A stretch of 64,000 nucleotides of DNA, taken from the NCBI RefSeq assembly GCF_003334255.1, contig NZ_QOWU01000011.1, one strand, 5' to 3'. This stretch comes from Escherichia coli (GTDB taxonomy: Bacteria > Pseudomonadota > Gammaproteobacteria > Enterobacterales > Enterobacteriaceae). Positions 36,274 through 38,010 of the stretch are shown in pieces. The stretch's first letter is position 1. Each line of letters starts with the position of its first letter. The position numbers and the translations under genes are program-made. Under the pieces are notes generated by a model. It had not been told where the DNA came from and did not search any database. It saw only the letters and a list, made by a program, of their open reading frames with translations.

Positions 36274-36597
36274 CTACTGACGATTCGGGCAATGCAGGCG
36301 GGTCATCTCGCCTTCTCTGCCCCCGGGTGAAACTAGCGTAACGCTGATGCTGACACATCCCGCCTGCGATGTCTGCATTCGGTTGACCTGCCAGTTGGCA
36401 GGTGGCGAAATCGCGCGCAGTTGCGTTTGCTGCCAGCCATGCCGCCAGAGCTGTTGGTACTGGTTTCTGCTGGCAAGACTGTTCATTAATGTTCGCTGGA
36501 AACCCGATAACGCAGTGACAATCATCACCATCAACACCATCGCCAACATTACCTCCGGCAGGCTAAAGCCTTGTTGATTCTTCAGGGAAGCTGACAT
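36274..36597 (-). CDS. ppdC: Prepilin peptidase-dependent protein C (pseudopilin-like)
   Basis: 107-aa ORF from ATG 36597 with N-terminal GFSLPEV prepilin motif and hydrophobic helix. Confidence 0.8.
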
Positions 36598-36989
36598 AAC
36601 GCCCTCTCTTTCAGCGGACAAAAATCGCTCCAGCCGCGTGGCGAAAAAACAATGTTTCCATCAATGACTTCGCCTGTTCGCCACAACGAAACGCCTTCAT
36701 AACCGGCAATCAATAAGGCTTCATTATCTGCCAGTAAACGCAAACAAACCTGGGCATCGGTTTCAGCGTACTGCGAGCACTGAACTGCTGGCTGCGTCTG
36801 CCAGGAGTGCATTTTTCCCCACGCCAGCGCCGACTGAACGATGGCCTGGCGGCGCAATGACTGACTTTCCATGCTCACGCGAGAGGCAAAACTGCGATCC
36901 TGTTGGCTCATTCCTTGTAATAGCAAACTACCCAAAACCAGCAGCATCAGGACCAGAGCCAGTGACGAAACACCCTTTTCGCGGTTCAC
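36582..36989 (-). CDS. ygdB: DUF2509 protein in the ppd operon
   Basis: 135-aa ORF with N-terminal hydrophobic segment; overlaps ppdC start and ppdB stop. Confidence 0.8.
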
Positions 36990-37549
36990 AGGTTGAATCC
37001 TGTCACGCTATAGCTGGCATTCACCACGGTTTGCGGTTCAGACTTACTGGCAGCACGCATATTAACCGTCAACACCGGCGAGAAGCCGCTGACATCCTGA
37101 CGTACGACCTGAAAAGTGTCGATAATGATGGCATCCGGATTAGTGACTTTATCCCAGCCCTTACCTTCACAGGATGTCGCACCGCGTAGCGTTTCCAGCA
37201 CATGCTCCTTCAGACGAAATCCAATCTGGTCGGACTCTTTTACCGGTTCGCGATCCCAGATACCGTTACTGTTCGCATCCCACTGCACAATGACACAGTC
37301 ACCCTGTCCGACAATTTCCAGCCCTTCGCCGGTACAGATGCCATGACAATAACCCGCCCTCTGGAGATGCTTCGCGACGGTAAATACCCGCAGCCAGATT
37401 TCATCTTCCAGCGCCAGCTTACGGGTGCTCGTTAAACTTTCACGCTGTAACGCAGGCAGAAAGCGTGCCGCCCCCAGCAACAATACGCTACTGATCGCCA
37501 TAGCAATCAACACTTCCAGCAGAGAAAAACCTTGCTCTTTTACAGGCAT
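36986..37549 (-). CDS. ppdB: Prepilin peptidase-dependent protein B (pseudopilin-like)
   Basis: 187-aa ORF from ATG 37549 ([17 protein letters not shown]...); the 267-aa track ORF is an upstream extension. Confidence 0.85.
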
Positions 37550-38010
37550 CCTTCTGTTTCTCCTTGCTGACAAAGCCGGAGTCTTCCCCACGGCGAAACC
37601 ACCAGCCACCACTCGCCCGTTGAGTTTTTGAAGCGAATATGCCCGGCCCATGCGGTATTGCGCAGGCCCAAGAAAGCAAGCGAAGGTGTCAGGTCGCTCA
37701 TTTCGACTTCGGGCCAGCGTGGCACAAAGACCAATGGTGAACTGCCATGACAGGTATTGGCCCCAGCAGCGGAACTCACAAGGCACCATAACGTCCCCTC
37801 CCTGATAACGCTGATACTGTGGTCGCGGTTATGCCAGTTGGCATCTTCACGTAAATAGAGCAAATAGTCCCGCGCCTGGCTGGCGGTTTGCCATAGCCGT
37901 TGCGACTGCTGCCAGTATTGCCAGCCATAGAGTCCACTTGCGCTTAGCATGACCAAAATCAGCATCGCGACCAGCGTTTCAATCAGCGTATAACCACGTT
38001 GTGTTTTCAT
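37540..38010 (-). CDS. ppdA: Prepilin peptidase-dependent protein A (pseudopilin-like)
   Basis: 156-aa ORF with [16 protein letters not shown] prepilin leader motif. Confidence 0.85.

Follow-up and report, generated by a model that had tools for sequence, protein, structure and literature searches.

Organization of the locus

The window analysed here, a 64,000-nucleotide stretch of Escherichia coli DNA, carries four overlapping open reading frames, ppdA, ppdB, ygdB and ppdC, on its minus strand between positions 36274 and 38010, as read from the sequence and its list of open reading frames. The operon is flanked by thyA upstream and recC downstream. The four genes and recC are arranged as follows.

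37540..38010, minus strand: ppdA, 156 aa, ATG start
36986..37549, minus strand: ppdB, 187 aa, ATG start (open reading frame, NCBIfam PRK10557, Pfam N_methyl)
36582..36989, minus strand: ygdB (DUF2509), 135 aa, GTG start
36274..36597, minus strand: ppdC, 107 aa, ATG start (open reading frame, NCBIfam PRK10332, Pfam N_methyl, PF12528)
32893..36261, minus strand: recC, 12-nt gap after the ppdC stop codon, own AGGAG ribosome site

Successive genes overlap by 10 nt (ppdA/ppdB), 4 nt (ppdB/ygdB) and 16 nt (ygdB/ppdC), and 183 nt separate the end of thyA from ppdA. An earlier note on this DNA, made from the letters, had placed four tightly overlapping minus-strand genes between recC and thyA; the RefSeq annotation lists the same four genes with identical boundaries, and the coordinates in that note are exact to the base. 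The gene names were equally borne out by RefSeq, by a 99.9% match to the annotated ppdA, ppdB, ygdB and ppdC genes, and by the NCBIfam equivalogs, whose curated cut-offs are exceeded by all four proteins (326 bits against 120 for PpdB with PRK10557, and 217 against 86 for PpdC with PRK10332). The operon is already known, with all its essentials published, and belongs to the textbook-level annotation of E. coli K-12; the confirmation mainly shows that it was correctly recognized from raw sequence.

Prepilin leaders

PpdA, PpdB and PpdC each begin with a short leader that ends in Gly and is followed by an aromatic residue at +1 and Glu at +5. The leader reads MKTQRG in PpdA and MPVKEQG in PpdB and ends in QG in PpdC, and the mature N-termini are YTLIE, FSLLE and FSLPE, respectively. 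With 97 aa in its mature form, PpdC is the smallest of the minor pilins. Each motif is followed by ~21 hydrophobic residues with a mean Kyte-Doolittle hydropathy of 1.9-2.2. The Pfam model N_methyl (PF07963) matches PpdA (E = 5e-7), PpdB (1e-8) and PpdC (2e-6), and TIGR02532 matches the three proteins with 24-30 bits against a cut-off of 16.3. The prepilin motif is kept in 23-24 of the 23-24 orthologues examined per protein (N_methyl in 24/24 for PpdB). Judged by these sequence features, the three proteins carry canonical class III (prepilin) signal peptides. The motifs that the earlier note had quoted for them are present, and the search against pilin families that it had proposed, in which PF07963 and TIGR02532 match all three, shows that cleavable leaders are not lacking.

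YgdB is the exception to the pattern. Its leader ends in Gly6 (KG/V), a residue shared by at least 90% of 58 sequences, and the mature N-terminus VSSLA runs into a hydrophobic helix; the residue at +5 is Ala rather than Glu, at a position that varies within the family, and profile searches gave no PF07963 or TIGR02532 match for YgdB. The protein has four conserved Cys and belongs to a narrow family, DUF2509, with 117 representatives among 1.84 billion proteins. Structure prediction gives it a pilin fold with confidence, and the structures that match it best are those of tip minor pilins, namely Streptococcus sanguinis PilA (PDB 7o5y), GspK and GspI. The model thus makes YgdB a non-canonical fourth minor pilin. 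Since it combines a leader Gly with a confidently predicted pilin fold, all four products of the operon, and not three, appear to be pilins; the claim of three leader-bearing proteins stands for PpdA, PpdB and PpdC and is refined by the addition of YgdB. K-type subunits are a known exception to the Glu+5 rule, and the subunit devoid of Glu5 caps the tip (PMC9934059); we propose that YgdB is such a K-type tip subunit. The label DUF2509, which RefSeq and Pfam still attach to a protein with the features and fold of a Glu5-less minor pilin, is the only annotation gap at the locus.

Subunit types and the relation to type II secretion

In structure, PpdA comes closest to FimU, a minor pilin of type IV pili, and GspH is matched as well. 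PpdA is therefore an H-type minor pilin with the GspH/FimU/FimT fold. Its C-terminal G142-R143-x-R145 (GRxR), invariant among orthologues, resembles the GRxR motif of the DNA-binding pilin FimT. Two disulfides are predicted, and the tail is stapled by Cys147-Cys155. PpdA thus combines the GspH/FimT fold with GRxR, but it does not occupy an orphan genomic position outside minor-pilin operons, which is a criterion for a high-confidence FimT (PMC8897410), as ppdA is the first gene of its operon. We regard PpdA, through its GRxR motif, as a candidate DNA receptor of E. coli.

The globular parts of PpdB and PpdC are less informative. Residues 3-150 of PpdB give a weak profile match (E = 0.006) to the Thermus type IV-like pilin TTHA1219, which has been described as GspJ-like. 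Apart from this match, profile searches found no described family for the globular part of PpdB, and none at all for that of PpdC; PpdB matches the GspJ, PilV and GspI models below their cut-offs and in its N-terminal part alone. Searches of PDB sequences with all four proteins, both as single sequences and as profiles, likewise returned nothing beyond the N-terminal helix, barring the weak match between PpdB and TTHA1219. From size, the presence of Glu5 and analogy, PpdB would be a J/PilW-type and PpdC an I/PilV-type subunit.

The genes could in principle encode pseudopilins in the narrow sense, that is, spare GspH/I/J/K-like subunits for a Gsp system rather than for a pilus. The Pfam name of the PpdC domain, “Type II secretion prepilin peptidase dependent protein C”, points in this direction, as do weak N-terminal matches to the GspH, GspI and GspJ models and the structural likeness of PpdA to GspH and of YgdB to GspK and GspI; moreover, minor pilins of type II secretion systems and type IV pili are reported to be functionally interchangeable (PMC9934059). 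Nevertheless, the Gsp models score far below their cut-offs (18.7 bits against 80 for GspH, 20.8 against 64.85 for GspJ, and 16.3 against 44.35 for GspI) and their matches span only the shared N-terminal helix, the 64 kb hold no gsp gene according to the annotation of a colinear K-12 derivative, and FimU, the closest structural relative of PpdA, belongs to a type IV pilus. The literature also describes co-regulation and co-assembly with ppdD and hof, and alignment with the comNOPQ genes (bioRxiv 10.1101/856302, PMC1635313, PMC12616744). A type II secretion role is accordingly extremely unlikely. The term pseudopilin, used in the earlier note, suggests type II secretion; the evidence favours minor pilins of a type IVa or competence pilus instead.

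The same annotation, of a K-12 derivative colinear with window positions 213-63923 apart from a tRNA repeat difference, lists no gene for an ATPase, a secretin, a platform protein or a prepilin peptidase within the 64 kb. This agrees with the claim that no assembly machinery is adjacent. The further suggestion that these minor pilin genes are orphans, with their machinery at another place in the genome, is supported by the literature, which puts hofB, hofC, hofMNOPQ and gspO at unlinked loci (bioRxiv 10.1101/856302).

The thyA-ppdA spacer and regulation

Four elements can be recognized in the spacer between thyA and ppdA.

38146..38172, minus strand: thyA intrinsic terminator, CCGACGC-CAGTGT-GCGTCGG followed by T7 (sequence and RNA fold)
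38111..38132, minus strand: CRP-S-type site 1, TTCTTCGAGACGCCTTCCCGAA (phylogenetic footprint, 71 Enterobacteriaceae spacers)
38059..38080, plus strand: candidate CRP-S-type site 2, inverted, TTCTTCGGCGCATCTTCCGGAC (pattern search)
38017..38045, minus strand: candidate ppdA core promoter, CTCGTC, 17 nt, CATACT, 6 nt, ATG (footprint)

The stem of the terminator is maintained via compensatory changes in other species, and it separates thyA transcription from ppdA. Downstream of it, site 1 has the core TTCGA-N6-TTCCC (38129-38114), and its centre lies 111.5 nt before the ppdA ATG. The E. coli CRP-S motif is asymmetric, T4G5C6G7A8-N6-T15T16C17C18A19 (PMC6728893), and site 1 matches it at 8 of 10 core positions and deviates at two. 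Among the 71 spacers, C6 and G7 are conserved in 61 each, T15 in 62, T16 in 68, C17 in 67 and C18 in 69. The site emerged only from cross-species footprinting together with the asymmetric E. coli motif. A search with the palindromic CRP-S motif TGCGA-N6-TCGCA, allowing up to two mismatches, gave 33 matches in the window against 44 expected and none in the spacer, and a scan for CRP-S that scored half-sites yielded nothing convincing.

Candidate site 2 (core 38062-38077) is inverted, and its centre lies 59.5 nt before the ppdA ATG and 52 bp from site 1. Its C6 and G7 are invariant in 71/71 spacers, but the right half shows little conservation. In the 64 kb, TKCGR-N6-TTCC is found at four places where 2.5 would be expected, and two of the four fall within the 183-nt spacer; the pattern was built from site 1, so that site 2 alone counts as a test.

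The candidate core promoter lies closest to the gene, and the sequence CAnACT is found at -12 to -7 from the ppdA ATG in ~60 of 71 species. No Shine-Dalgarno sequence is present for ppdA, the 25 nt upstream lacking a purine-rich stretch. Because exactly 6 nt lie between the conserved block and the ATG, we hypothesize from the sequence that this promoter would give a leaderless or near-leaderless ppdA mRNA. The replacement of the ppdA ribosome site for expression (bioRxiv 10.1101/856302) fits the missing Shine-Dalgarno sequence. A generic promoter and terminator scan reported no minus-strand promoter; the same scan overlooked the thyA terminator. Comparison by eye of the conserved spacer blocks with sigma-54, sigma-28, sigma-32 and LexA motifs revealed no convincing fit, and a comparison of 35500-38700 with Rfam found no RNA family at E <= 1.

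These sites accord with what is reported on regulation. The operon is Sxy-regulated and ppdA is its most strongly induced gene, according to passages of PMC12616744 that cite Sinha 2009 and Jaskolska and Gerdes 2015. Both CRP and Sxy are needed at the CRP-S promoters of ppdD and yrfD/hofM (PMC1635313); ppdA itself is not named in PMC1635313 or PMC6728893. The description of the operon as cryptic is therefore correct in the sense that the genes are uninduced, but it does not hold as more than that, as the operon belongs to the Sxy and CRP (CRP-S) regulon and has a conserved CRP-S-type site upstream.

Conservation, selection and the link to recC

The loci of 80 Enterobacteriaceae species were recovered with a YgdB profile built from a 10-sequence alignment, as the 58-sequence alignment was too diverse for a locus search. 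The order ppdB-ygdB-ppdC-recC is found in 80/80 species, with recC 12-44 nt downstream in every case. ppdA precedes ppdB in 79/80 loci, and in the remaining one the retrieved DNA starts inside ppdB; lgt-thyA lies upstream in 73/73 loci with enough flank. Identity across species is 45-99% for the pilins, 91-100% for ThyA and 74-100% for the N-terminus of RecC. In a MAFFT alignment of the whole operon, conservation amounts to ~0.69, 0.76 and 0.45 at codon positions 1, 2 and 3, respectively. The better conservation of positions 1 and 2 than of position 3 points to purifying selection on the proteins.

In a comparison of 78 species, the third base never varies in just seven of the 545 degenerate codons of the operon. 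These are the ygdB start codon and ppdC codons 75, 76 and 81-84, and the ppdC positions fall in the following element.

36346..36375, minus strand: invariant block in ppdC, CAGACA, 17 nt, (TGt)CAGCAT; candidate recC promoter

From its sequence, the block, ~78 nt upstream of the recC ATG, could plausibly be a sigma-70 -35 and extended -10 pair and thus a candidate constitutive recC promoter. Finch et al. in 1986 reportedly sequenced the thyA-recC interval and discussed a recC promoter. recC is described as forming an operon of its own (PMC12342828); given the gap of only 12 nt between ppdC and recC, its promoter must then sit within the pilin genes.

Such a block raises the question of whether the pilin genes are decaying, unused relics that are kept only because recC expression signals lie inside them. 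The invariant promoter-like block in ppdC speaks for this explanation, the genes are silent under laboratory conditions in a species that is barely transformable, and they evolve far faster than their neighbours (45-75% identity compared with 91-100% for ThyA). The open reading frames are, however, intact and full-length in the window and at every locus examined across ~80 species, and the stretch from ppdA to ppdC is found at full length in 5426/5426 complete E. coli genomes with 95-99.9% identity. There is no variation in the leader Gly, in Glu5, in the Cys pairs or in GRxR. Selection on the proteins is indicated by the codon positions, of which the second varies much less than the third, and the cloned genes have been used in a pilus-assembling system (bioRxiv 10.1101/856302). 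Decay is thus very unlikely.

Function of the operon

The products of the operon are very probably the four core minor pilins of the PpdD type IVa pilus, which is also the competence or DNA-uptake pilus. In the H-I-J-K model of type IV filaments, four pilins are encoded in one operon and one of them, the tip cap, lacks Glu5 (PMC9934059). The locus shows this arrangement, with four pilin genes in one operon, a YgdB devoid of Glu5 and a PpdA of the GspH/FimU type. The four genes are best read as an H/J/K/I-type core minor-pilin set orthologous to Haemophilus comNOPQ. The assignment to the PpdD pilus is supported by the cloning of ppdA, ppdB, ygdB and ppdC as “minor pilins” together with hofB, hofC, hofMNOPQ and gspO for the assembly of PpdD pili (bioRxiv 10.1101/856302), and by the scheme of the EHEC system (10.1101/2021.04.14.439816). 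The secondary literature yielded no claim that E. coli needs every one of the ppd genes for piliation.

A sequence of events can be put together from what is established for type IV filaments (the H-I-J-K model, PMC9934059) and from the literature on E. coli and Haemophilus. The operon would remain silent until Sxy (TfoX) and cAMP-CRP activate the CRP-S promoter. The four proteins would then enter the inner membrane, where GspO or PppA, prepilin peptidases with genes at other loci, would cleave them after the Gly and N-methylate them. PpdB, YgdB and PpdC may form a staggered tip complex with the Glu5-less YgdB as its cap, and PpdA would link this complex to PpdD. The tip complex would prime polymerization of PpdD on HofB/HofC/HofMNOP, the filament passing through the HofQ secretin; hofQ is required for Sxy-induced DNA uptake in E. 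coli (PMC3330819). Finally, PpdA at the pilus tip may bind DNA via GRxR, and retraction would bring the DNA in. Natural transformation of E. coli occurs at very low rates only (PMC3330819, PMC12616744); as it is so rare, the physiological role could be the use of DNA as food, adhesion or something else. The biological interest of the operon lies in the dormant DNA-uptake machinery of E. coli, in which the four proteins are presumed to prime the PpdD pilus and to form its tip.

The last step might be replaced by another one, if the PpdD pilus serves mainly in adhesion or virulence, as the haemorrhagic coli pilus of EHEC, and PpdA is a FimU-like adaptor rather than a DNA receptor. This is a possibility that we rate as somewhat unlikely. 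It differs from the main explanation in DNA binding only and is otherwise compatible with it. The membership of the operon in the Sxy/CRP-S competence regulon, as stated in the relevant passages of PMC12616744, its linkage to recC as in Haemophilus (PMC1635313) and the invariance of GRxR in PpdA all speak for the DNA-uptake pilus with PpdA as a putative receptor.

The features at both ends of the operon can also be read jointly. The recC promoter would lie in ppdC, so that the pilin operon and recC are interlocked, Sxy/CRP-S transcription would read through into recC, and PpdA would be the DNA receptor at the pilus tip. A recC promoter inside ppdC would explain why Enterobacteriaceae through to Pasteurellaceae have kept the pilin genes beside recC. 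Nothing resembling a terminator is seen between ppdC and recC, and transcription driven by Sxy and CRP-S, possibly leaderless from the ppdA ATG, would consequently continue into recC. This combined picture is tentative, and we consider it unlikely to hold in all its parts. If true, read-through would shift the balance of RecBCD subunits exactly during DNA uptake. The CRP-S sites, the possible leaderless start and the ppdC block are targets for engineering or deleting the locus without disturbing recC.

Comparison with known systems

S. sanguinis PilA, although one of the best structural matches of YgdB, shares only 7% sequence identity with it and comes from a monoderm host. Its partners are large modular pilins with lectin modules, to which nothing at the ppd locus is comparable. 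Legionella pneumophila FimT is typically encoded by an orphan gene and has a flexible C-terminal tail and no cysteines, whereas PpdA heads a minor-pilin operon and has two predicted disulfides; its DNA binding is putative.

The FimU-PilV-PilW-PilX set of Pseudomonas aeruginosa and the GspH-I-J-K set likewise comprise four pilins in one operon, and the resemblance extends to the GspH/FimU fold of PpdA, to YgdB, which lacks Glu5 like the K subunit and has GspK and GspI among its best matches, and to the presumed common role as a tip complex that primes filament assembly. The ppd gene order is H-(J)-(K)-(I), in contrast to H-I-J-K in the quartet. YgdB, of ~129 aa, is without the large inserted domain of GspK and constitutes a family of its own. 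The ppd operon also has no pilY1 or pilE neighbour and is unlinked to machinery genes.

The closest system is comN-comO-comP-comQ (HI0938-HI0941) of Haemophilus influenzae, in which four prepilin-type genes of similar size form one operon. The Haemophilus genes are proven to be necessary for transformation, and deletion of comN abolishes DNA uptake (PMC12616744, PMC1635313), whereas E. coli barely transforms. PpdA and ComN are only 18% identical, a relationship that BLAST does not detect, and ComN has three disulfides compared with two in PpdA; the fold and key residues are nevertheless common to both. Like the ppd operon, comNOPQ lies directly upstream of recC in the same orientation and is controlled by Sxy and CRP through a CRP-S site (PMC1635313, PMC12616744), and the linkage to recC is also reported in Pasteurellaceae (PMC1635313, PMC12616744).

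Conserved elements of the thyA-ppdA spacer

The spacer between thyA and ppdA carries these further elements, conserved at least in part, in addition to the first CRP-S-type site:
38059-38080, + orientation (inverted): second CRP-S-like 22-mer, TTCTTCGGCGCATCTTCCGGAC, 52 bp from the first CRP-S-like site
38086-38106, minus strand: conserved direct repeat TGCAAC-N5-CTGCAAC, flanked by both CRP-S-like sites
38017-38045, minus strand: CTCGTC, then CAnACT, directly upstream of the ppdA ATG

Within the TWCGR half of the second CRP-S-like site, C6 and G7 are present in all 71 species of the footprint set, and the opposite half is weakly kept across species. 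The second copy of the direct repeat is almost invariant between species; it may represent a -35-like element or a site bound by another factor. CTCGTC is separated from CAnACT by 17-18 nt, and in about 60 of the 71 species CAnACT ends 6 nt before the ppdA ATG. This conservation, together with the lack of a Shine-Dalgarno sequence in the ppdA start region, suggests that 38017-38045 is a candidate promoter, which would yield a leaderless ppdA mRNA.

The spacer is ~186 nt long in most species. It reaches 2847 nt (2150-4998) in the Kluyvera sichuanensis locus, L023, and 471, 380 and 303 nt in three further Enterobacteriaceae loci (L070, L075 and L043). These enlarged spacers indicate that insertions arise downstream of the thyA terminator and ahead of the ppdA promoter.

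An invariant block in ppdC and the packing of the recBCD region

Across 78 species, the four pilin genes have 545 degenerate codons, and in only seven of them does the synonymous third position never vary; six of these seven lie in codons 75-84 of ppdC. The corresponding feature lies ~78 nt upstream of the recC ATG:
36346-36375, minus strand, within ppdC: nucleotide-invariant block CAGACA-17 nt-(TGt)CAGCAT

Judged by its sequence, the block looks like a sigma-70 -35/extended -10 pair that would serve recC.

The genes ptrA and recB overlap by 8 nt (29829-29836), and recB and recD by 1 nt (26294). With these overlaps the recBCD region resolves into two compact units: ppdABygdBppdC-recC forms one and ptrA-recB-recD the other, with a gap of 175 nt (32718-32892) between them.

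Among database proteins, P0009, P0023, P0034 and P0041 (228-237 aa) join the YgdB domain DUF2509, the prepilin leader domain N_methyl and the PpdC domain T2SSppdC. These proteins look like YgdB-PpdC fusions, which could originate from a frameshift within the 16-nt overlap or from a gene-calling artefact.

Comparison with EPI300

The window closes with an IS1 terminal inverted repeat (GGTAATGACTCCAACTTATTGATAGTG..., 63924-64000), the insertion adjoining yqeK; the K-12 derivative EPI300 has no IS1 at the matching yqeK position. Of 5426 E. coli genomes, just 15 covered a yqeK-IS1 query to at least 80%, a coverage made up of two joined pieces that need not reflect the same junction. The tRNA-Met (CAT) at 21440-21516 is a single gene, whereas EPI300 contains three tandem 110-bp copies, a difference that makes the window 220 nt shorter than the matching EPI300 stretch.
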